Assembly (NCBI GenBank): GCA_013003535.1
Contig: JABDIY010000009.1
Location: forward strand, 13,451-77,450
From: Acidimicrobiales bacterium
GTDB taxonomy: Bacteria > Actinomycetota > Acidimicrobiia > Acidimicrobiales > SZUA-35
Length of the DNA: 64,000 nt
Reading direction: 5' to 3'
The notes below the pieces were generated by a model, which saw nothing but the letters and a program-made list of their open reading frames with translations, was not told the DNA's origin and searched no databases. The position numbers were made by a program, and so were the translations under genes. This document shows positions 5,375 to 33,496 of this stretch, one piece after another. The number at the start of each line of letters is the position of its first letter. Within the stretch, counting starts at the first letter, position 1.

Positions 5375-6275
5375 CCGGGACTTCCACCGAGCGGATGATT
5401 CCGCGGATCACGGACTCGTCGAACTGTCTAGGGAGGCGATGGATGAGCACGTGCGGTGCCGCCGCCTGCACGTCTTCCGGTGCCACGTAGGACCGTCCTG
5501 AAATCACGGCGTGGCCACGGGCGACATCGGCCAAAGAAGCCGAGGCCCGAACACTCAACCAAACCTCGCCGTCCACCTGACGGACGGCATCGACGATATT
5601 GAGTACGTACTCCACGATCGAAGGAGCCATCGGGAGGTTTCGGACATGAAGCATGAGGTCAACGAGTTCGGGTCGCTCAAGCACCGCCGTCAGCCCGCCG
5701 AGGTGGGCGAAACCAGCACTCCCGGACAAGATGGCCCGCTCGCTTTCCCGTCCCGGCAGGCCGAGCTTCGTCATCAGAGCAAACCGATCGAGCTGGGCAG
5801 GGACGAGTGGATGCGTACCGCCCCCGCCGGGAGGATTCTGCGTGGCAATGACCATGAACGGCTGCGGCAATTGAGCGGTTGTACCGTCCACCGTGACCTG
5901 ATTCTCCGCCATCGCTTCGAGCAGTGCCGATTGCGCCTTTGGTGTAGCCCGATTGAATTCATCCACCAAAACCAGAGAGGCGAAGATGGGGCCGGCTCGG
6001 AACGGCCATGAGGCGTCGGCGGGATTGAAGACATGGATACCCGTGATATCGGTGGGCAACAAGTCCGGTGTGCCCTGAATACGAGAAGTATCCAGGCCCA
6101 ACGTGGTTGCCAGAGCTCGCGCCAGCACGGTCTTACCGACGCCCGGTCGGTCCTCCAAAAGCACGTGGCCACCGCTCAAGAGCGCCGCCAAAATCAGCGT
6201 AACCGCGTCTCGTTGGCCGGCGATGACGCGCTCCACGCTGGAAACGATTTCCTTCAGATGCTCGTGCTGCGCCAT
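5361..6275 (-). CDS. MoxR-family AAA+ ATPase
   Basis: GHVLLEDRPGVGKT Walker A, VLVDEFNR Walker B. ATG at 6275 gives the usual ~20 aa before the GQ motif. The ORF is open up to a GTG at 6401, so the start is uncertain. Confidence 0.85.
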   Translation of the reverse strand: MAQHEHLKEIVSSVERVIAGQRDAVTLILAALLSGGHVLLEDRPGVGKTVLARALATTLGLDTSRIQGTPDLLPTDITGIHVFNPADASWPFRAGPIFASLVLVDEFNRATPKAQSALLEAMAENQVTVDGTTAQLPQPFMVIATQNPPGGGGTHPLVPAQLDRFALMTKLGLPGRESERAILSGSAGFAHLGGLTAVLERPELVDLMLHVRNLPMAPSIVEYVLNIVDAVRQVDGEVWLSVRASASLADVARGHAVISGRSYVAPEDVQAAAPHVLIHRLPRQFDESVIRGIIRSVEVPVASR

Positions 6276-25100: not shown

Positions 25101-26507
25101 CTACGCGTGCTTCTCGCCAGACCCGGACTGTAGCGGCAGATACGGCCGAATGGCGCCAAGATCGTTGGGAACCGAATGGAATCGTTCGGGCAAGTTCATG
25201 AGATCACCCGCTCGGTCGGGTACCTCCGGCGTCACGCCGGTGGCCTCAGCAACCGCAGCCCCGAACTTGGCAGGGTGGGCGGTGCCCAAGACGATGAGTG
25301 GTACATCAGGATCGCGCCGCCTATTACGGCCAACATGAAGAGCGACTGCCGTGTGAGGATCGACCAGGATTCCCAGTTCGGAGTGAACTCTCCTCATTTC
25401 GGCCAGCGTGCCATCATCATCGAGGCGCCCACCGTCGAACTCTTCCCGGATTCGATCCATCCAAGCGTCCGGAACCTGGACGGTGCCAGTGGCCCGGAAC
25501 GTGGAAAGCAGTTCGGTGACCGCGTCGCCGTCGCCTCCGGATGCTTCGAAGAGGAGTCGTTCGAAGTTGCTTGATATCTGGATGTCCATGCTCGGGCTCA
25601 GCGACGGAACTACGGATTCAGCTACGAGAGCGCCCGATTCTAGGACCCGTGTGAGGACATCGTTGCGGTTGGACGCCACGATCAACTGGTCGATCGGGAG
25701 CCCCATGTGTTTGGCATACCATCCCGCCAAGACGTTGCCAAAGTTGCCGGTGGGCACACTGAAACTGACCGCAGCACCCGAAGGCGAAACCCGCCGAGCA
25801 GCACTGACGTAATACGCGGTTTGGGCCATGACGCGAGCCCAGTTGATGCTGTTGACAGCGGCCAGCCGAGCACCGACACGGAGATCGGCGTCACCAAAGG
25901 CCTCCTTCACCAGATCCTGACAATCGTCGAAGTTTCCTGCGACCGCGAGATTGGTGATGTTGGGCGCGTCGACCGTGGTCATTTGCCGCCGTTGGATCTC
26001 GCTCACGCGACCCTCAGGATGAAGAATCACCACCTCCACCCGCTCGCGGTTGGCGAGGGCATGAATCGCCGCAGATCCGGTGTCACCCGACGTCGCGCCG
26101 ATCACCGTGACCCGCTCGTCGCGTTTGGTGAGCTCGTAATCCAGCAACCGGCCCAGCAGCTGCAATGCGAAGTCTTTGAAGGCCAGCGTGGGGCCAAATG
26201 ACAGGTCGCAGAGCCACTGGTTGTGACCGAGGTCGAAGACCGGCGCCACCGCCGGATCAGAGAATCCTCGGTACGTATCGGTGACCATGGCCACGAAATC
26301 AGCCCGACCAATAGACCCCTCCACGAAGGGCCACATGACAGCTATGGCGATCTCGGAATAGGAGAGCTCGTCTGTGATTCCTTCGCCCAACTCCGGGATC
26401 TCTGTTGGCACGTACAGACCACCGTCTGTGGCCAAGCCGGCAAGGAGAACGTCAGCGAAGCCAAGTTCGGGGGCCTTGCCCCTCGTGGAACGATAGGTGA
26501 TGACCAT
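25101..26507 (-). CDS. thrC: threonine synthase (long form)
   Basis: YRSTRG N-terminus, FGPTLAFKD PLP-lysine motif. 468 aa. Confidence 0.95.
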   Translation of the reverse strand: MVITYRSTRGKAPELGFADVLLAGLATDGGLYVPTEIPELGEGITDELSYSEIAIAVMWPFVEGSIGRADFVAMVTDTYRGFSDPAVAPVFDLGHNQWLCDLSFGPTLAFKDFALQLLGRLLDYELTKRDERVTVIGATSGDTGSAAIHALANRERVEVVILHPEGRVSEIQRRQMTTVDAPNITNLAVAGNFDDCQDLVKEAFGDADLRVGARLAAVNSINWARVMAQTAYYVSAARRVSPSGAAVSFSVPTGNFGNVLAGWYAKHMGLPIDQLIVASNRNDVLTRVLESGALVAESVVPSLSPSMDIQISSNFERLLFEASGGDGDAVTELLSTFRATGTVQVPDAWMDRIREEFDGGRLDDDGTLAEMRRVHSELGILVDPHTAVALHVGRNRRRDPDVPLIVLGTAHPAKFGAAVAEATGVTPEVPDRAGDLMNLPERFHSVPNDLGAIRPYLPLQSGSGEKHA

Positions 26508-27790
26508 TACTGACCGATCACCCGCAGAACGCTCCCGACGCCTCGTACCACCTTCATTCCTTTGAATGCGGTGAGGGTCTCGCGCAGGTTGCGCTCAGGA
26601 GCAGCGTGCGTGATGAAGACCAGACGAGCGGTGCCGCCGTTCGCATCGTGCTCGACATCATGGAGATCATGCTGTTCCATGGTGCGGATGGAGACACCGT
26701 GCTGGCCCAATGCTCCAGCGACCTGAGCAAGGACTCCAGCGGCATCGGTGACCTCGAGATTCACATAGAAGGCGCTGGGGAGATCGTCGATCGGTTTGAT
26801 GGGCACGCGCGGTCCTACCGACACCGGACGATGCCCGCCCTGGCGTAAGGCTGCGGACGCCTCCAACACATCACCCAGCACCGCCGAGGCGGTCGGGGCC
26901 CCACCGGCTCCCCGGCCGTAGAACATCAGTTCCCCACTGGCAGCACCCTCTACAAAGACAGCGTTGAAGCTGTCTCGAACGCTCGCCAAGGGATGAGAAT
27001 TGGGAACCATCGCCGGGTGGACCCGCACCCCAACGGACTGTTTGCCGTCTACGAGAAACTGTTCTGCAATGGCCAGCAGCTTGATTTGATGACCGAGACG
27101 CTGGGCGAAATCGATGTCGGTAGCCGTGATACTGCTGATGCCCTCGTGGTAGACGTCACCAGCAACAACATCGGCGTTGAAAGCGATCGAGGCCATGATC
27201 GCAGCTTTGGCACCCGCGTCGAATCCTTCCACGTCAGCGGTGGGGTCACGTTCGGCATATCCAAGTCGTTGGGCTTCGCTCAACGCAGCGGAGTAGTCGG
27301 CGCCGTCCTCGGTCATCTTGGTGAGGATGTAGTTGGTTGTGCCATTCACGATGCCGGTGATACGGGAGATATCTTCGCCAGACAAGCTGGCACGGAGGGC
27401 ACGTACGATGGGAATGGCTCCGGCCACGGCCGCCTCAAAGAGCAGGTCAACTCCAGCGTCATCCGCGACCCTCATGAGTTCTGCCCCGCAGTTGGAGATC
27501 AACTCTTTGTTTGCGGTGACTACGGGTTTCCCGGCCTTGAGGGCCGAAACGATGAGCGACTTGGCCGGTTCTATCCCGCCGATCACTTCCACCACGATGT
27601 CCACATCGTCACGGTCCACTACAGCCTGGGCATCGGTGGTGAGAAGCTCCGATGAGATAGCGGCCGCCCGAGCCTTGGTGGCGCTTCGGACCGCTACCGA
27701 ACGGAGCGCAAGATCAGGTTGGTCGGCCAGCAGCGTTGCCAAGGCACCTCCGACGGTCCCACAGCCCAGCAATCCGATTCCCAGAGTCAC
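26507..27790 (-). CDS. hom: homoserine dehydrogenase
   Basis: GLLGCGTVGG NAD motif and a C-terminal ACT-like region. 1-nt overlap (TAATG) with thrC. Confidence 0.93.
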   Translation of the reverse strand: MTLGIGLLGCGTVGGALATLLADQPDLALRSVAVRSATKARAAAISSELLTTDAQAVVDRDDVDIVVEVIGGIEPAKSLIVSALKAGKPVVTANKELISNCGAELMRVADDAGVDLLFEAAVAGAIPIVRALRASLSGEDISRITGIVNGTTNYILTKMTEDGADYSAALSEAQRLGYAERDPTADVEGFDAGAKAAIMASIAFNADVVAGDVYHEGISSITATDIDFAQRLGHQIKLLAIAEQFLVDGKQSVGVRVHPAMVPNSHPLASVRDSFNAVFVEGAASGELMFYGRGAGGAPTASAVLGDVLEASAALRQGGHRPVSVGPRVPIKPIDDLPSAFYVNLEVTDAAGVLAQVAGALGQHGVSIRTMEQHDLHDVEHDANGGTARLVFITHAAPERNLRETLTAFKGMKVVRGVGSVLRVIGQ

Positions 27791-27885: not shown

Positions 27886-29622
27886 TTAGGGCGGCATCGT
27901 GTCGGTGGCCAATATGAATTCGACGGATTCGCTGAATCCGATCATGACCTGGCCCCGTGTGAGGACGCCCGTCTCCAGTGTTTCCAGCCAAAACGCTCGA
28001 CCCTTGACATCTGGGACCCGCCCCAGGACGTTCTGGTACACGAGATCGACGAACTGGCCGTTGTCCAGATTGCCGTAGGTCCCAACGAACTCAGCGGACC
28101 GGGCGAACTCGCCGCTCAAAGCCCCCAGGTTGGCACCGTTGGCGATTTGTTCGAGCCAGAAATCCAGGCCCCCTTGGTCTGCGCTCCTGTTGAAGTAGGC
28201 ACGATAGAGACGCTCGATCTGGTGCCCGAGCGAAGGGCCCGGCGCGGCGGTTTCGGTCCGATTCAGGAACTCCTGGCTTTCGGAAAACCCGATCATCAAT
28301 GAACCCCTTGTCATGCCAGATTGGAGTTGCCCCAACCAAAACGCTCGACCCGAAGCGTCGGGGGGCCGGCCCAAAACATTGGCATACACGAGATCTACGA
28401 AACCACCATCGCTGAGGACTCCGTAGGTGTTCTCGAACTCCGTCGATGCGGCGAACTGCGCCGAGATGGCGCTGAGCGAAGTGCCGCCAGCTCGGAATGT
28501 GGTCCAATAGGAAAGGCCTCTGCTGTCGGGCTCGCGGTCGAGATAAGCGAAATAGAGCCGCCGAATTTGATCACTCAATTGCGGGCCCTCGAGACTGCGC
28601 CGATCAATGATCCGTATCTCGGGGCCGTTGAGATCCATCAGCTCCAGAATCGTGTCGCCGGTGCCTCGAGAGGTCAACAATGCAGCCCCGCTGAGAGAGG
28701 CGTCGCGGGGCCGTCCCAGCGGTGACGCCCCCGACGCTTGCAGATAGGTGAGTTCGCCGCTGGTTCGCCACCTATAGAGCTCATCATTGCTGTTGAAGAG
28801 CACGCTGGTGGCATTGCCGGCCAACACCACCGGAGCTGCTGATGCCTGGCTGGGCTGGGGATACCCAACCTCGGTGGGGGTGGAACCGTCGGTAGTGGCG
28901 ATGCTGAAGCGCACCGGGTCTGTGGCGGCCAGCGCTTGGACAGAAGCATCGGCCGAAAGGCCGGCCAGTTGGGTCAAGGGCGAAAAACTTGCCACTCCGG
29001 AACTCACTGCCACCTGACGGATCGATTCACCCGAGCGAAAGAAGGCGGCCTGACCGTTGGGGATGACAAAGACGTCGTGAGCTTCAGGTCCGAGCGCCGG
29101 TGTCACCGTGGCCGAGAATGACCGAACCCGGGTGGCGGTCCAGATCCGCATGATTCCCGATGTTCCGCTGACCTGTTCTGTGTAAACGACAACTGCGCCG
29201 GACTGGCTCAGCGCCATGTCCGTGATCCTGCCTCCGTTGCTGGGGAGCGCCACGCTCTGACCGGTGGCGCGACTCCATCGCAGCGGGAGGCCACCGGAGC
29301 TGTAGACCACGGTTTCACCGCGATCGGATACGCCAAACGGCACCGCATCCACGTCGCCCAGGAGAATGGTGTTGTTCATGCCCACGTCAAAGAGCCCAAC
29401 CCGACCGCCGGGCCGGTCATAGAGAACAAACCGCCCATTGCCCGACAGGTCCGCGAACGAGTTGTTCGCCGCCGACCCTACAAATCGGGGGGTGACCCGC
29501 ATTCGCAGGGAGGCCAGCGAGTCGACCGGGGCAGTAGCCGCCCCGACGGGAAGTGCCAGCCCTGCCACAGCTGCCAGTACCACGACCAAAATCAGAGTCA
29601 GGCGACGCATAGATTTCATCAT
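27886..29622 (-). CDS. secreted protein: N-terminal propeller-like region plus three C-terminal DUF4214 repeats
   Basis: Signal peptide MKSMRRLTLILVVVLAAVAGLALPVGA. The pattern (I/V)xRLYxAY(L/F)xRxxDxxGLxxW...L(V)YxNVLGRxPDxxG(R)xFW occurs three times. Confidence 0.7.
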   Translation of the reverse strand: MMKSMRRLTLILVVVLAAVAGLALPVGAATAPVDSLASLRMRVTPRFVGSAANNSFADLSGNGRFVLYDRPGGRVGLFDVGMNNTILLGDVDAVPFGVSDRGETVVYSSGGLPLRWSRATGQSVALPSNGGRITDMALSQSGAVVVYTEQVSGTSGIMRIWTATRVRSFSATVTPALGPEAHDVFVIPNGQAAFFRSGESIRQVAVSSGVASFSPLTQLAGLSADASVQALAATDPVRFSIATTDGSTPTEVGYPQPSQASAAPVVLAGNATSVLFNSNDELYRWRTSGELTYLQASGASPLGRPRDASLSGAALLTSRGTGDTILELMDLNGPEIRIIDRRSLEGPQLSDQIRRLYFAYLDREPDSRGLSYWTTFRAGGTSLSAISAQFAASTEFENTYGVLSDGGFVDLVYANVLGRPPDASGRAFWLGQLQSGMTRGSLMIGFSESQEFLNRTETAAPGPSLGHQIERLYRAYFNRSADQGGLDFWLEQIANGANLGALSGEFARSAEFVGTYGNLDNGQFVDLVYQNVLGRVPDVKGRAFWLETLETGVLTRGQVMIGFSESVEFILATDTMPP

Positions 29623-29677: not shown

Positions 29678-30193
29678 TCAGCTTGCGATCAGTCGTTCCA
29701 CACCAGCACGGAGTTCCTCGCCACGGACCGCACCATAGGTGGTGAGATCCGTGGTCCCGTCGTCGTTGATGAACAGAAAGGTCGAACGTCCGCTGGTTTC
29801 GAACTGTTTCCAAAGCGAACCGTCGACATCCTGGATCTGAGGGAAGTTGGAAGTGCCGGTGTCATCGATGAACTTCTGGACCGCCGCCAGATCGGACGGG
29901 TCGGAGATTCCGATGAACTTCACGTCATCTCCGTATTCGGCTTCGACCTCTGCGACCGCAGGGCCCTCTGCTCGGCACGACGTTCACCATGGTGCCCAAA
30001 ACCAGACCACCAGGTCCGAGTTGCGATAACTCGCAAGATCGACGGTTTCGCCGGTCACCGTGGAGAACTCGCCGGTGAGCTTTTTTTCCACCGAAGCTCC
30101 GGCTGCTGCTGGGCTCACTACGGCCTCCTCGGCACTTGCACCGCAGGCAGCAAAGAGCAAAGACAGAGCAATGATGAGCCGGGTCGCCTTCAC
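29678..30193 (-). CDS. TlpA/ResA/DsbE-like thioredoxin-fold lipoprotein interrupted by an in-frame TGA at the CxxC motif (candidate selenoprotein, or pseudogene)
   Basis: Track ORFs 29984..30259 and 29678..29923 share one frame. Read-through gives WFWAPW-[TGA 29984..29986]-TSCRAEGP.... Lipobox LLFAAC follows a GTG at 30193. Confidence 0.5.
29953..29974 (-). promoter_or_regulatory. hairpin 9 nt downstream of the in-frame TGA (SECIS-like candidate)
   Basis: mRNA CGAGCAG-AGGGCC-CUGC-GG-UCG: 7 bp with a 2-nt bulge and a G-rich 6-nt loop starting 16 nt after the UGA. Confidence 0.3.
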
Positions 30194-30303
30194 GCAGGTC
30201 ACGTTAGCCCGCAGCCTTCGCTGGTGGATGTCACCCTGACAGCAGGTGGCTGCTGCCAACCATCGGTTTGAATGTCAACACCAAGCCCATCGCGACAAAA
30301 CCC

Positions 30304-31575
30304 TTAGGTGAGATCGGTGGTGAGCAGGTCAGCGAGCGTTTCGCGGCGCACAACCATGCGAGCGTCGCCGTTTTCACAGAAGACCACGGGCGGGCGAAGC
30401 ACCTTGTTGTAGTTGCTCCCCATACTGTGGCCGTAGGCGCCGGTCACCGGGGTAGCTAGTACGTCGCCCACAACGGTGTCCGCAGGCAGCAAACCCTCCC
30501 GGACCAAAATGTCGCCACTCTCGCAGTGTTTACCCACGATCCTGGCATGGAATGGCCGTTCGGCAGCGACTGCCCTGGGGAGGAATGTCTCGTAGCCGGA
30601 CCCATAGAGAACGGGCCGAGGGTTGTCGCTCATTCCCCCATCGACCGCCACATAGTTGCGGATGCCATCAAGCCGCTTGATCGTCCCCACGGTGTATGCC
30701 GTGATCGCGGCGCCTGCCGCAATGGAACGGCCAGGTTCGATCCCCAACGTCGCCGTGATGCCGGCCTGCGCCGCCTCACGCTTCAAAATCTGGCCCCACT
30801 GACGGATGGTGGGGGCCTCCTCGCCTGCTACATAGGGAACTCCAAGACCGCCACCGACCACCAGCTCGGCGAGACCGAATGGCTCGGAGAACTCGGCGAG
30901 CACCTGCAACGATTGGGCGAAGCTTTCGACACGAAAGACCTGCGAACCGATGTGGGCATGGATACCGACCAGGTTGACAGCTTCGGACGCACCGGCCCGT
31001 TCGACCGCTTTGGCTGCCACCCCGGTGCTCACTGTGAAGCCGAATTTGGAATCATCCTGGCCGGTGGCGATGAACTCATGGGTGTGCGCCTCCACGCCGG
31101 GCGTGACCCGAAGAAGCACCTTGGGCGGGCCATGGCCCTGCGCATGCAATGAGTCCAGCCGATTCAGCTCGTCGAAACTGTCCACCACGATCCGGCCAAC
31201 GCCCTCCCTGATCGCCATCCTCAGCTCGGCCACGCTCTTGTTGTTGCCATGGAATACGAGGTCGGCGGCCGGCACGCCCGCCGCTCGAGCGATATGGAAC
31301 TCTCCTGCCGTGGCGACGTCCAGCGTCATGCCCTCATCGTTGGCCAGTTTCGCCATGGCTTTGCAGAGGAACGCCTTCGTGGCATAGGTGGCGTGCCGGC
31401 CAAAGAGCTCTACCGCATCACGACAGCGCTGCCGAAGATGGGTTTCGTCGTAGATGAACAACGGGGTTCCGTATTCATCAGCGAGATCGAGGACGCTGCA
31501 CCCGCCGATCACCAGTTCACCAGCATCACCCAGCTCAGACGAGTCGGGAAGAAGCTCCCACGGAACTGGTTTCAT
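30304..31575 (-). CDS. lysA: diaminopimelate decarboxylase
   Basis: TPLFIYDE, YATKAF (PLP Lys), CESGD. ATG at 31575 was chosen because the longer ORF overlaps argS. Confidence 0.93.
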   Translation of the reverse strand: MKPVPWELLPDSSELGDAGELVIGGCSVLDLADEYGTPLFIYDETHLRQRCRDAVELFGRHATYATKAFLCKAMAKLANDEGMTLDVATAGEFHIARAAGVPAADLVFHGNNKSVAELRMAIREGVGRIVVDSFDELNRLDSLHAQGHGPPKVLLRVTPGVEAHTHEFIATGQDDSKFGFTVSTGVAAKAVERAGASEAVNLVGIHAHIGSQVFRVESFAQSLQVLAEFSEPFGLAELVVGGGLGVPYVAGEEAPTIRQWGQILKREAAQAGITATLGIEPGRSIAAGAAITAYTVGTIKRLDGIRNYVAVDGGMSDNPRPVLYGSGYETFLPRAVAAERPFHARIVGKHCESGDILVREGLLPADTVVGDVLATPVTGAYGHSMGSNYNKVLRPPVVFCENGDARMVVRRETLADLLTTDLT

Positions 31576-31589
31576 CGCAGGGAGCGTAG

Positions 31590-33194
31590 CTACATCTCCT
31601 CGGGGGCGTTGACCCCGAGCAAATCCAGTCCGATGGCAAGCCCGATCCGCGTTGCTTCGGTAAGCCAGAGCCGAGCCTGTTGAAGGTCGGGATCCACATC
31701 CGACCGGAGGATCGGGCAGTGAGCGTAAAAGCTGTGGAAGTTCCCGGCCAGGCCGCGCACCCATGTGGTGATCCGGTGGGGTGCCCGGTCACGGGCGGCC
31801 CCCGCCAAGATCTCCGGCAGTTCATGGAGATCGCGCAACACCGCTACTTCGTTGGGATCAACCAGGCCAGACAGATCGGTCTGGGCGAGGTCGCCCAGAA
31901 CGATGTTCCGCTTGGCCGCCTCTCTACCAATTGCGTGAATTCGAGCGTGGGCGTACTGAACATAGAAAACCGGGTTCTCGCCGGCCTGGGCCTTCCACAC
32001 GTCGATATCTATGGTTTGGGCCGTATCGATGGACTGCAGAAGGTAGGCGAAGCGCGTAACGTCCGGCCCGAGGTCGTCGATGAGTTCGTCGACCGCGATC
32101 ATCGTCCCGGTTCGTTTACTGAGCTTCACTTCCTCTCCACCGCGCATGAGGCTCACGTTCTGACCGATGATGGCCTCGTACTCGTCTGCTTCGTGACCAA
32201 GCGCAAGCAGGGCGGCTCGCATCCGGGGAACATAGCCATGATGGTCCGCTCCCAAGATGTCGATCACGAGATCGCCACGGTTGTATTTGTCCCGGTGGTA
32301 GGCAACGTCAGGCAGAAGATAGGTGTAGTCACCATCGGACTTGATCAGAACCCGATCTTTGTCGTCGCCGAACTCGGTGGTAGCCAACCACACGGCATCG
32401 TCCTTTTCATACACATAGCCCGATTGACGAAGAGCGATCAGCGTGTTCTCCACAGCGCCGCTCTCGACCAGAGCGTTTTCCCTGCTCCAGGTGTCGAAAT
32501 GCACATGCATCGACGCCAACGACTCCTCCACCTCCTGCAGCGCCCGTTTGATACCCCACTCCGTAGGGTCAGCCGTTGCCGGCATCTCGGCGGCCCATTC
32601 GGTCACGTACTCACCCTCGTAGCCACCGGCGGGTACGGGAATTCCATCCCGGCGGGCCACCAGACTCTGTCCGAACAACACCGTTTGGGTGCCCCGGTCG
32701 TTTACGTAGAACTCTTTGTGCGGGATGTACCCACAGCGTTCCATGATCCTGGCGAGGCTGTCTCCGAAAACGCCCCAACGACCTCCACCAGCATGGAGTG
32801 GGCCGGTTGGATTGGAGCTCACAAACTCCAAGTTGACCTCGAGCCCATCACCGACATGGAGCCGGGCATAGTTCTCAATGCCCTCGGCGACCACAGTGCG
32901 AAGAACGTCGTGAACCCACGACGGTGACAGAGTGAAGTTGATGAAGCCGGGACCGGCGATCTCCAACTTCTCCACATGCGGCAGCTCGGCCTCCACGAGA
33001 ATGGCCATGAGTTCTTCACCAAGCTGCCGCGGGTTTTTCTTGAGCGACTTGGCGCACACCAGAGAGGCGTTGGTACTCCAATCACCATGATCGGGGTTGC
33101 CGGGCCGTTCCACGGTGACAGCTTCTGGAACCTCAGCAACACCAAGGGTCTGCAAGGCATCTCTTACGGCTTCGAGGATCTGGGAGCGGACCAT
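31590..33194 (-). CDS. argS: arginyl-tRNA synthetase
   Basis: SSNPTGPLHAGG (HIGH-type) and a class I ArgRS sequence throughout. 534 aa. Confidence 0.95.
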   Translation of the reverse strand: MVRSQILEAVRDALQTLGVAEVPEAVTVERPGNPDHGDWSTNASLVCAKSLKKNPRQLGEELMAILVEAELPHVEKLEIAGPGFINFTLSPSWVHDVLRTVVAEGIENYARLHVGDGLEVNLEFVSSNPTGPLHAGGGRWGVFGDSLARIMERCGYIPHKEFYVNDRGTQTVLFGQSLVARRDGIPVPAGGYEGEYVTEWAAEMPATADPTEWGIKRALQEVEESLASMHVHFDTWSRENALVESGAVENTLIALRQSGYVYEKDDAVWLATTEFGDDKDRVLIKSDGDYTYLLPDVAYHRDKYNRGDLVIDILGADHHGYVPRMRAALLALGHEADEYEAIIGQNVSLMRGGEEVKLSKRTGTMIAVDELIDDLGPDVTRFAYLLQSIDTAQTIDIDVWKAQAGENPVFYVQYAHARIHAIGREAAKRNIVLGDLAQTDLSGLVDPNEVAVLRDLHELPEILAGAARDRAPHRITTWVRGLAGNFHSFYAHCPILRSDVDPDLQQARLWLTEATRIGLAIGLDLLGVNAPEEM

Positions 33195-33288: not shown

Positions 33289-33360
33289 GCCCTCGTAGCT
33301 CAGGGGATAGAGCATCCGCCTCCGGAGCGGTGTGCGCAGGTTCGAATCCTGCCGAGGGCG
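33289..33360 (+). tRNA. tRNA-Arg (anticodon CCG)
   Basis: Manual cloverleaf: acceptor GCCCTCG/CGAGGGC, D arm GCTC-AGGGGATA-GAGC, anticodon loop CTCCGGA, T arm GCAGG-TTCGAAT-CCTGC. No encoded CCA. Confidence 0.9.
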
Positions 33361-33496
33361 CGCTGATTTGTTTGACTTCGCTCGCCCAGGCTCGTACCTC
33401 GCCGAGGGGTCGCTCCGTGGCTCGCTACCACTCAACCGGAACAAAAAGAGGCGAATCGTACAAGACAGTTTTCGTGGGAATCCCCACAATGGAGGT

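Follow-up and report, generated by a model that had tools for sequence, protein, structure and literature searches.

The thioredoxin-fold proteins most similar to the one described here that have a solved structure are MPT53/DsbE (Rv2878c, PDB 1LU4) and DsbF (Rv1677, PDB 3IOS) of Mycobacterium tuberculosis, the latter of which is annotated as a lipoprotein. The present protein is encoded in a 64-kb stretch of DNA (referred to as the window), and resembles both of them in the WFW[AT]PW-C-x-x-C context, in having a thioredoxin fold that carries a TlpA-like insertion, in its actinobacterial lineage and in its predicted extracytoplasmic location, at an identity of only about 35–40%. It differs from them in that MPT53/DsbE and DsbF carry Cys at the nucleophilic position, where selenocysteine (Sec) is predicted here, are without a SECIS hairpin, and have the cis-proline (QP) in place of Ser137.

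Selenoproteins with a comparable active site have been catalogued under several names. The 'thiol-disulfide isomerase-like protein' family (Zhang and Gladyshev 2005), which has MGB1650493.1 and MAK15852.1 as reference proteins, falls in the same domain class (cd02966) and has the same UxxC motif, and is likened to the window protein by motif and domain only (PMC1088965, PMC13188914). By 2016 this family comprised five genes in only three sequenced bacteria (PMC5029168 Table S3), a count compatible with the multi-copy pattern in Acidimicrobiia considered below. Selenoproteins named Prx-like thiol:disulfide oxidoreductase or 'Redoxin family protein', whose reference members come from Geobacter and marine metagenomes, share the Pfam families (PF00578/PF08534) and the UxxC motif, the likeness being one of family and motif only. 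By its motif and domain class, the gene in the window belongs to an already catalogued kind, the TlpA-like UxxC selenoproteins, and it reveals no new mechanism. The selenoprotein papers PMC1088965, PMC13188914, PMC5029168 and bioRxiv 10.64898/2026.04.03.716425 do not report the features given below, namely that the protein is a predicted lipoprotein, that it is related to DsbE/DsbF, that such forms occur in at least 120 species and that their SECIS elements fall into classes. A full-text literature search that paired selenocysteine with DsbF or MPT53 returned no such account either.

A preliminary description of the locus had reported two same-frame ORFs split by a TGA and 20 sense codons, and the coordinates of this arrangement were confirmed on the minus strand (30259..29984 and 29923..29678). 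Reading through the TGA yields ...DLVVWFWAPW-TGA-TSCRAEGPAVAEVEAEYGDDVKFIGIS...FLFINDDG...LIAS, with an active site of the form WFWAPW-U-T-S-C, in which U occupies the first Cys of a thioredoxin-type W-C-x-x-C at the N-terminus of helix 1. Translation most likely starts at GTG 30193, the alternative being the in-frame GTG 30202, and the N-terminus from GTG 30193 reads MKATRLIIALSLLFAAC, a signal peptide with a lipobox. Of 50 long frames in the window, 23 end in TGA, which makes it the commonest ordinary stop there, and the selenoprotein gene itself also terminates with TGA. The features of the locus are collected in the table.

Table. Coordinates of the predicted selenoprotein gene and its features within the window.
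Feature	Position	Strand	Remarks
Complete selenoprotein CDS	29678..30193	-	171 codons plus TGA stop (29680..29678); based on frame, coordinates and conservation relative to L247
Lipoprotein signal peptide MKATRLIIALSLLFAA, then lipobox Cys17 (30145..30143)	30143..30193	-	Read from the sequence
Thioredoxin-fold (TlpA/ResA/DsbE-like) domain, residues 45–146	29756..30061	-	Pfam and PDB 1LU4/3IOS matches
In-frame UGA, predicted Sec70	29984..29986	-	N-terminal nucleophilic position of the U-T-S-C redox motif
Cys73 (TGC), resolving residue of UxxC	29975..29977	-	Invariant column in the homologue alignment
SECIS-type hairpin GGCCCUGC-GGUC-GCAG(A)GGUC	29945..29965	-	+22..+42 from the U of UGA; loop 29957..29954 (+30..+33); bulged A 29949
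Ser137, column of the conserved cis-proline (QP of ..QPAF..)	29783..29785	-	HMMER alignment to 1LU4 and 3IOS

With Cys put at the TGA, the read-through protein matched four Pfam models, all above their gathering cut-offs: AhpC-TSA (4e-13, 49.7 bits; cut-off 26), Redoxin (2e-10, 41.2 bits; 26.6), Thioredoxin (2e-8, 34.9 bits; 23.5) and Thioredoxin_8 (30.5 bits; 27). The best matches among solved structures were 1LU4 (E=1e-20) and 3IOS (E=2e-20), over about 115–120 residues. The UGA lines up with the first Cys of CxxC in both of these and in 123 of 125 database homologues, which bears out the earlier placement of the TGA at the first Cys of CxxC in a TlpA/ResA/DsbE-like fold. The ResA, TlpA, StoA and DsbE (CcmG) reductases have the same fold and a membrane-anchored topology, and this group supplied the best NCBIfam similarities, far below the curated cut-offs: no NCBIfam model scored above its cut-off, the best being ResA (NF002854; 48.7 bits against 170), StoA (NF041202; 45 against 210) and TlpA (NF047696; 41.5 against 230). 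On these scores, the protein is the equivalog of none of ResA, StoA and TlpA.

At the cis-proline column that typifies the TlpA/ResA/DsbE-like fold, the Ser of GRSTF aligns with the QP of MPT53 and DsbF. Pro stands there in 100 of 116 Sec forms, RS[ST]F is found in the window and in five homologues (L001, L004, L012, L036 and L102), and many Cys forms likewise have Ser in this column (QSTY type). Judged from these alignments, the missing cis-proline is subfamily variation and no ground for excluding the protein from the class. The extracytoplasmic targeting characteristic of that class is predicted from MKATRLIIALSLLFAA-C17, and at least 106 of 122 Sec-form homologues carry a lipoprotein signal of the form K/R-hydrophobic-[LVI..][AST..][GAS]C, in agreement with the lipoprotein signal proposed in the preliminary description.

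The pattern W-F-W-A-P-W-TGA-x-x-Cys was found in at least 120 species-representative genomes, almost all of them Acidimicrobiia or other Actinomycetota. Some homologues sit on complete chromosomes, among them OZ244898.1, NZ_OZ253573.1 and OZ241331.1. Chance would produce this pattern in about 0–10 genomes by a rough estimate, and its recurrence is far beyond that. Among the 118 TGA matches with a frame end inside the available DNA, all except L099 stop 91–106 codons past the TGA, and the C-terminus is similar in most of the 118. Both L099 and L118 look frameshifted after the TGA, decay thus happening occasionally. In a homologue with 53–55% identity (L001), the TGA is retained and the hairpin is identical, while the codons between them differ. 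A relative with 84% identity, from a different strain or species (L247), likewise kept the TGA. Relative to L247, the 101 codons after the TGA contain 25 nucleotide changes, no amino acid change and 24 synonymous-only codons, and the 69 codons before it contain seven amino acid changes; as far as these substitutions tell, both halves of the gene are under purifying selection. No nucleotide change relative to L247 was seen from +13 to +92. At the protein level, a single-sequence search returned six matches only, the best 120 matches of a profile search were all Cys forms, and no full-length U-containing sequence was present among the 125 database homologues.

A hairpin had also been proposed downstream of the UGA, at 29953..29974 and with its loop at 16 nt. 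A conserved, covarying hairpin does exist after the UGA, but the proposed position and loop distance were wrong: 29953..29974 is not the conserved structure, which spans 29965..29945 and has a GGUC apical loop beginning 26 nt after the UGA. This hairpin folds alone at –11.9 kcal/mol. Columns C29, G30, G31, U32, C33 and G34 were invariant (n=85 sequences), and stem cells were paired in 92% of cases versus 75.4% in shuffles and 21–57% in slid controls, with 60 stem cells changed on both sides versus 12.5 expected. The independent prediction of RNAalifold pairs positions 26–29 with 34–37. A 4-bp stem was found in 81 of 118 Sec forms versus 0 of 109 Cys forms, and the Val codon was GUC in 110 of 118 Sec forms versus 45 of 109 Cys forms. 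Two further registers of the hairpin occur in the family (class B, with an AGGUN loop at about +38..+42, and class C, with a GGUC loop at +39..+42), covariation being supported in the main class and in class B.

The E. coli fdhF SECIS also forms a hairpin immediately after the UGA inside the CDS, with an identical 4-nt GGUC apical loop and a stem bulge. Its loop lies at +22..+25 rather than +30..+33, the stem sequences are unrelated, and the bulge is on the 5′ arm (U17), whereas that of the window hairpin is on the 3′ arm (A at +38). In bSECISearch, the stem-loop is placed 16–37 nt downstream of the UGA. The window hairpin falls within this range and has a G in its small apical loop, as described for bSECIS elements (PMC1088965). 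A generic rule for bSECIS-like hairpins was passed by 79 of 109 Cys forms, and was therefore rejected as evidence. Likewise, the minimum free energy (MFE) of the 71-nt region after the UGA was not significant for its G+C content (z = –0.41) and the mean MFE was similar in Sec and Cys forms, so that thermodynamic stability alone is uninformative in such G+C-rich DNA. Rfam at gathering thresholds returned tRNA-Arg only, with no match to a SECIS family.

The gene order in the window is lysA, the selenoprotein gene, a gene for a DUF4214 protein, and hom. The surroundings of the homologue loci showed no conserved partner gene. Recurrent neighbours in one subclade were Lpd (19 loci), E2 (12 loci) and LipB/LipA (4 loci), a pattern that probably reflects synteny. 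In this general survey, neither a cytochrome c maturation gene nor ccdA was prominent among the recurrent neighbours. Across the window, 91 candidates for another in-frame TGA followed by a GGU-loop hairpin were considered, and none except the selenoprotein gene was convincing by its flanking translation. Open frames are common in G+C-rich DNA.

Because the UGA is conserved, the sequence downstream of it shows purifying selection, and the covarying GGUC hairpin is specific to the UGA forms, the apparent stop is almost certainly a real Sec codon inside one gene. Those comparative checks suggested in the preliminary description that were run all favoured Sec. This gene very probably encodes an exported, lipid-anchored oxidoreductase of the DsbE/DsbF (MPT53) type, in which Sec replaces the nucleophilic Cys of CxxC.

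The UGA might instead be decoded as a residue other than Sec, either through near-cognate read-through (Trp, Cys or Arg) stimulated by the hairpin, as downstream hairpins can do in other systems, or through a lineage-wide reassignment of UGA. In favour of such recoding, sel genes and tRNA-Sec were not found in the window or the homologue loci: ARAGORN detected no tRNA-Sec in 971,606 bases (the window plus 123 homologue loci of up to 8 kb), and tblastn searches of this DNA with E. coli SelA, SelB and SelD gave weak GTPase-domain matches only. Against it, the codon sits at the catalytic Cys of a CxxC centre, a classic site of Sec/Cys exchange, the hairpin loop is of the SelB type seen in fdhF, and TGA is the most used ordinary stop in the window. 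Moreover, related Acidimicrobiia are reported to possess the machinery, SelA, SelB and SelD being accompanied by 15, 10 and 7 selenoproteins in Ilumatobacter coccineus, I. nonamiensis and Candidatus Microthrix parvicella, respectively (PMC5029168 supplement), which, for Acidimicrobiia, contradicts the earlier remark that few actinobacterial selenoproteins other than formate dehydrogenase have been reported. In Actinomarinales, selABCD and about five selenoproteins per genome have been reported (bioRxiv 10.64898/2026.04.03.716425). We therefore regard decoding as another residue as very unlikely.

Less likely still is a pseudogene created by a recent TGC/TGT-to-TGA nonsense mutation in a normal CxxC oxidoreductase gene. 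Such a mutation needs one base change, Cys forms are abundant in the family, and the frameshifts of L099 and L118 attest to occasional decay; against this stand the same-column TGA in at least 120 species with nearly all downstream frames intact, the 24 synonymous codons beside not a single amino acid change after the TGA relative to L247, and the confinement of the covarying hairpin to TGA forms. These observations refute the nonsense mutation that the preliminary description had kept as an alternative and make a pseudogene extremely improbable.

Equally hard to credit is a pair of genes, consisting of a 69-aa lipoprotein that ends at the TGA and an independent 81-aa protein that starts at GTG 29923. 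Public gene calls do divide the locus in this way, one gene being annotated as two fragments on four contigs (L001 and L247–L249), and the same splitting probably affects the family in many metagenome-assembled genomes of Acidimicrobiia and other Actinomycetota. Neither half is a complete domain, though, since the thioredoxin fold spans the TGA in both the Pfam match and the PDB alignments, and protein-level conservation extends through the 20 codons that separate the TGA from the called start, resolving Cys included. Finally, a sequencing or assembly error at the TGA codon, the other alternative raised earlier and a formal possibility for a single metagenome-derived window for which no support was found, has a negligible probability and is refuted by two independent run-level assemblies (SRR11195980 and SRR11195981), which agree exactly over the 70-nt core, TGA included, and by the presence of the TGA in L247 and at least 120 other genomes.

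Under the selenocysteine reading, decoding would follow the known pathway of bacterial Sec insertion: the GGUC loop would bind SelB-GTP-Sec-tRNA(Sec), which would deliver Sec at the UGA, giving U70. The preprotein would be exported by the Sec translocon and then lipidated at Cys17, and this lipidation would therefore place the protein on the outer face of the membrane. There, the U70-T-S-C73 centre would cycle between the selenol/thiol and selenenylsulfide states, exchanging with disulfides or thiols of envelope proteins. Going by its homology to M. tuberculosis DsbE/DsbF, an oxidase or isomerase role may suit the protein better than that of a reductase like ResA.

A wider proposal, which we put forward tentatively and consider unlikely to hold as a whole, is that the Sec forms constitute a separate clade of DsbE/DsbF-type selenolipoproteins that has not yet been described. 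They would be a main extracytoplasmic thiol-disulfide catalyst in Acidimicrobiia, Nitriliruptoria and related groups, frequently with more than one copy in a genome, and would routinely be lost from annotation when gene callers split them. Their SECIS element would have shifted among three registers, with a GGU-containing loop retained throughout, and the window's subclade, with Ser for the cis-proline, could have a chemistry unlike that of classical DsbE/ResA, for example a peroxidase-like or oxidase one.

The reading of the locus as one selenoprotein gene corrects an annotation error by which it had been called as two. The SECIS alignment, with its invariant GGUC, covarying stem, three registers and matched Cys negatives, is usable to train or benchmark bacterial SECIS predictors and would also be useful for studying SelB recognition in Actinomycetota. 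With M. tuberculosis DsbE/DsbF as homologues of known structure, the contribution of Sec to an extracytoplasmic oxidoreductase can be approached on a structural basis. For Actinomycetota, in which most selenoproteomes consist of formate dehydrogenase alone, the gene adds a well-supported candidate for an exported selenolipoprotein.

On the minus strand, the two mechanically called ORFs (30259..29984 and 29923..29678) share one frame and, as the preliminary description stated, are separated by a TGA (29986..29984) and 20 sense codons, the codons running from GAC CTG GTG through CCA TGG TGA ACG TCG TGC to GCA GAG GTC. Read-through yields a 171-residue product (MKATRLIIALSLLFAAC...DLVVWFWAPW-U-TSC...LIAS) that ends at the TGA at 29680..29678, with GTG 30193 as its most plausible start. 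With Cys replacing the stop, the Pfam models AhpC-TSA, Redoxin, Thioredoxin and Thioredoxin_8 all scored above gathering, the match (residues 45-146) spanning the TGA as expected for the proposed thioredoxin-type fold. The lipoprotein nature also proposed held up, as the N-terminus reads as a lipoprotein signal with Cys17 and at least 106 of the 122 homologues carry a lipobox.

Because the same TGA occurs in independent assemblies and in an 83.6%-identical relative, sequencing error is ruled out. Specifically, a 70-nt core including the TGA is identical in the independent run-level assemblies SRR11195980 and SRR11195981, and the TGA is kept in ENA ERZ25039508 contig_11226 (2.05 Mb), which shares just 83.6% identity with the window over 2.2 kb; the 81-residue product of the downstream ORF is on record in all three of these assemblies. 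Comparison with this 84%-identical relative revealed 25 nucleotide but no amino-acid differences over the 101 codons past the TGA (24 codons differing only synonymously), indicating that the downstream half is translated in frame and under purifying selection, and thereby ruling out a pseudogene. Over the 69 codons ahead of the TGA, there were 26 nucleotide and 7 amino-acid differences. The TGA is therefore real, and not the error or nonsense mutation considered as the alternative. Genome-wide UGA reassignment is likewise ruled out, since long frames in the window end in TGA more often than in any other stop (23 of 50), the selenoprotein gene itself included, so that local recoding is required.

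An initial protein search returned four full-length Cys forms (homologues with Cys at the UGA position; WFWAPWCxxC) and one 99-residue fragment, whose source contig L001 reads ...DLVVWFWAPW-TGA-TSCVAEGPAVAEVEAAF... in a single frame, this orthologue having 53-55% protein identity to the window gene. A scan of GTDB representative genomes, one for each species, with the pattern TGGTTYTGGGCNCCNTGG-TGA-NNNNNN-TGY placed TGA at the same column in at least 120 stretches, with a rough chance expectation of <1 to about ten. Among the matches listed, nearly all titles were from Acidimicrobiia or other Actinomycetota, including Ilumatobacter, Microthrix, Ca. Poriferisodalis, Aldehydirespiratoraceae, Nitriliruptorales, Euzebyaceae and Egibacteraceae, and four contigs came from bins labelled Chthoniobacterales (L023), Gammaproteobacteria (L051), Acidobacteria (L072) and 'bacterium' (L044). 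The resemblance of the first three to typical Acidimicrobiia sequences suggests that they are mis-binned; L044 is divergent and carries neither main hairpin class. In the 118 of 122 matches listed whose frame end lay within the available DNA, the frame stayed open for 91-106 codons beyond the TGA in all but L099, and the C-termini of the matches listed were mostly alike (...L[IL]A[ST]). Translation past the TGA looks frameshifted in L099 (from 5980 onwards) and, locally, in L118 (around 5801..5863 and downstream), perhaps through gene decay or misassembly. Several genomes carry two Sec-containing paralogues (L067 and L071, NZ_CBDCBD010000002.1; L038 and L054, JBCCWI01; L068 and L076, JAJDTF01), one pair sharing a single contig.

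In 85 Sec forms (homologues with UGA at the first Cys of CxxC), 63 nt starting at the UGA align gap-free, and the invariant columns C29, G30, G31, U32, C33 and G34, counted from the U of the UGA, are the closing pair and 4-nt GGUC loop of a hairpin. Its stem shows compensatory changes (CUGC/GCAG, CCUC/GAGG, GCGGC/GCCGC, GUGC/GCAU, CCGC/GCGG), and the fold 24-29/34-40, bulged at 38, had 92.0% of cells paired versus 75.4% in column shuffles (reached by none of 500) and 21-57% when the 3' arm was slid as a control. Cells changed on both sides numbered 60 against 12.5 expected, and an independent RNAalifold prediction returned pairs 26-29/34-37. Moreover, the covarying pair 27-36 links two third-codon positions (CCU/GCA, CCC/GCG, GCG/GCC), pointing to a constraint on the RNA rather than on the protein. 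Between the window and the 84%-identical relative, no nucleotide differs from +13 to +92. A conserved hairpin thus does follow the UGA, but its earlier placement at 29953..29974, with the loop 16 nt after the UGA, was incorrect, that stretch being just the 5' arm and loop of the real structure. Local MFE after the UGA was not exceptional and should not be relied on as evidence.

Features of the window gene on the minus strand
Feature	Position	Strand	Remark
SECIS-type hairpin GGCCCUGC-GGUC-GCAG(A)GGUC	29965..29945	-	folds at -11.9 kcal/mol
GGUC apical loop	29957..29954	-	26 nt after UGA
Ser137 (GRSTF), cis-Pro column	29783..29785	-	Ser also in L001, L004, L012, L036, L102

As a negative control, 119 distinct Cys forms were collected from metagenomes (pattern WFWAPW-TGY-xx-TGY), of which the 109 with frames of at least 90 codons were compared. 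The 4-bp stem in the same register was present in 0/109 Cys forms versus 81/118 Sec forms, GGUC at +30..+33 in 20/109 versus 93/118, and GUC as the Val codon at the loop in 45/109 versus 110/118. The generic 'bSECIS-like hairpin' rule also picked out 79 of the 109 Cys forms and is not to be relied on. A further 28 Sec forms (class B) have a 6-bp stem (32-37/43-48; 94% paired; 10 double changes versus 1.2 expected) and an AGGUN loop, and three sequences (L031, L059, L116) carry GGCUGC-GGUC-GCAGCC 9 nt further downstream. The loops thus occupy three registers, at +30..+33 (GGUC), about +38..+42 (AGGUN) and +39..+42 (GGUC), and the SECIS seems to have moved inside the coding sequence with its GGU loop retained. 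In the AGGUN register (L017, L024, L035, L041, L073 and others in alignment A2), a second G-rich-loop hairpin lies ahead, at about +13..+28.

The best solved relatives were M. tuberculosis MPT53/DsbE (1LU4, E = 1e-20) and DsbF (3IOS, E = 2e-20), which carry WFW[TA]PWCxxC with the first Cys aligned to the UGA; ResA, StoA and TlpA followed with much weaker scores. No NCBIfam model reached its curated cut-off (ResA, 48.7 bits versus 170), which means that the protein is no equivalog of the cytochrome-c-maturation reductases. With a profile built from 28 Sec forms, full-length Cys forms numbering in the hundreds were retrieved from Actinomycetota, named at source 'TlpA family protein disulfide reductase', 'redoxin domain-containing protein' or, in Mycobacterium, 'protein disulfide oxidoreductase'. 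None of 125 proteins retrieved was a U-containing record, and gene calls in L001 and in L247-L249, contigs of further assemblies, split the locus into two fragments. While the cis-Pro (QPAF) is present in MPT53/DsbE, DsbF and 100 of 116 Sec forms, the window copy and five relatives have Ser; Ser is frequent there in Cys forms too (QSTY), the Pro pattern being missing in 63 of 109. Judged by sequence, cis-Pro-less TlpA-like proteins look like a sizeable actinobacterial subfamily.

The case for recoding is based on the conserved UGA at the catalytic position, the translated downstream half and the UGA-specific covarying hairpin with its SelB-type loop, which support the proposed selenocysteine oxidoreductase and make it very likely that the window gene genuinely encodes Sec. 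By the established bacterial pathway, SelB-GTP-Sec-tRNA(Sec) would bind the GGUC loop, a loop shared with the E. coli fdhF SECIS (MG1655) but located there at +22..+25, and UGA would be decoded as Sec70. The preprotein would then be exported and lipidated at Cys17, with U70-x-x-C73 on the membrane's outer face running a selenenylsulfide cycle in thiol-disulfide exchange with envelope proteins. By analogy, it might act as an oxidase/isomerase, as proposed for mycobacterial DsbE/DsbF, or as a reductase like ResA/TlpA. Neither selA, selB, selD nor tRNA-Sec was found within the 64-kb window or the 8-kb homologue loci, the sole window tRNA being tRNA-Arg(CCG) (33289..33361, plus strand) adjoining argS. 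Support for the Sec machinery comes at lineage level from the literature: SelA/SelB/SelD are listed with 15, 10 and 7 selenoproteins in Ilumatobacter coccineus, I. nonamiensis and Ca. Microthrix parvicella, respectively, most actinobacteria having one selenoprotein (Peng et al. 2016, PMC5029168 supplement), and Actinomarinales are reported to carry selABCD, with each genome encoding about 5 selenoproteins (2026 preprint, bioRxiv 10.64898/2026.04.03.716425).

No conserved neighbouring partner gene was found in the homologue loci. Directly downstream in the window (27886..29622, minus strand) lies a gene for a secreted protein of 578 aa that has a signal peptide and, towards its C-terminus, DUF4214 repeats. 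This gene and the selenoprotein gene are inserted into an otherwise typical argS-lysA-hom-thrC arrangement, where they separate lysA (30304..31764) from hom (26507..27790); the 84%-identical relative has the same gene order. In about 19 loci (e.g. L105, L080, L014, L057), all of a single Aldehydirespiratoraceae-like subclade, genes for dihydrolipoamide dehydrogenase (Lpd), E2 acyltransferase and LipB/LipA are found repeatedly on the opposite strand, some 1-4 kb upstream of the Sec gene, and L002 has two Lpd-like flavoproteins near a Cys form. This association is probably synteny, though it may reflect a redox link.

A 'thiol-disulfide isomerase-like' selenoprotein family was listed in 2016 with 5 genes in 3 sequenced bacteria (PMC5029168 Table S3), counts that fit the multi-copy Acidimicrobiia pattern. 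A full-text literature search combining selenocysteine with DsbF or MPT53 returned nothing relevant, and the publications consulted apparently describe neither the DsbE/DsbF relationship and lipoprotein nature of the Sec forms nor their occurrence in at least 120 species and three SECIS registers with a common GGU loop. To a specialist, the window gene would be a standard instance of the Sec/Cys pairs known among thioredoxin-fold oxidoreductases, in a lineage already known to be rich in selenoproteins.
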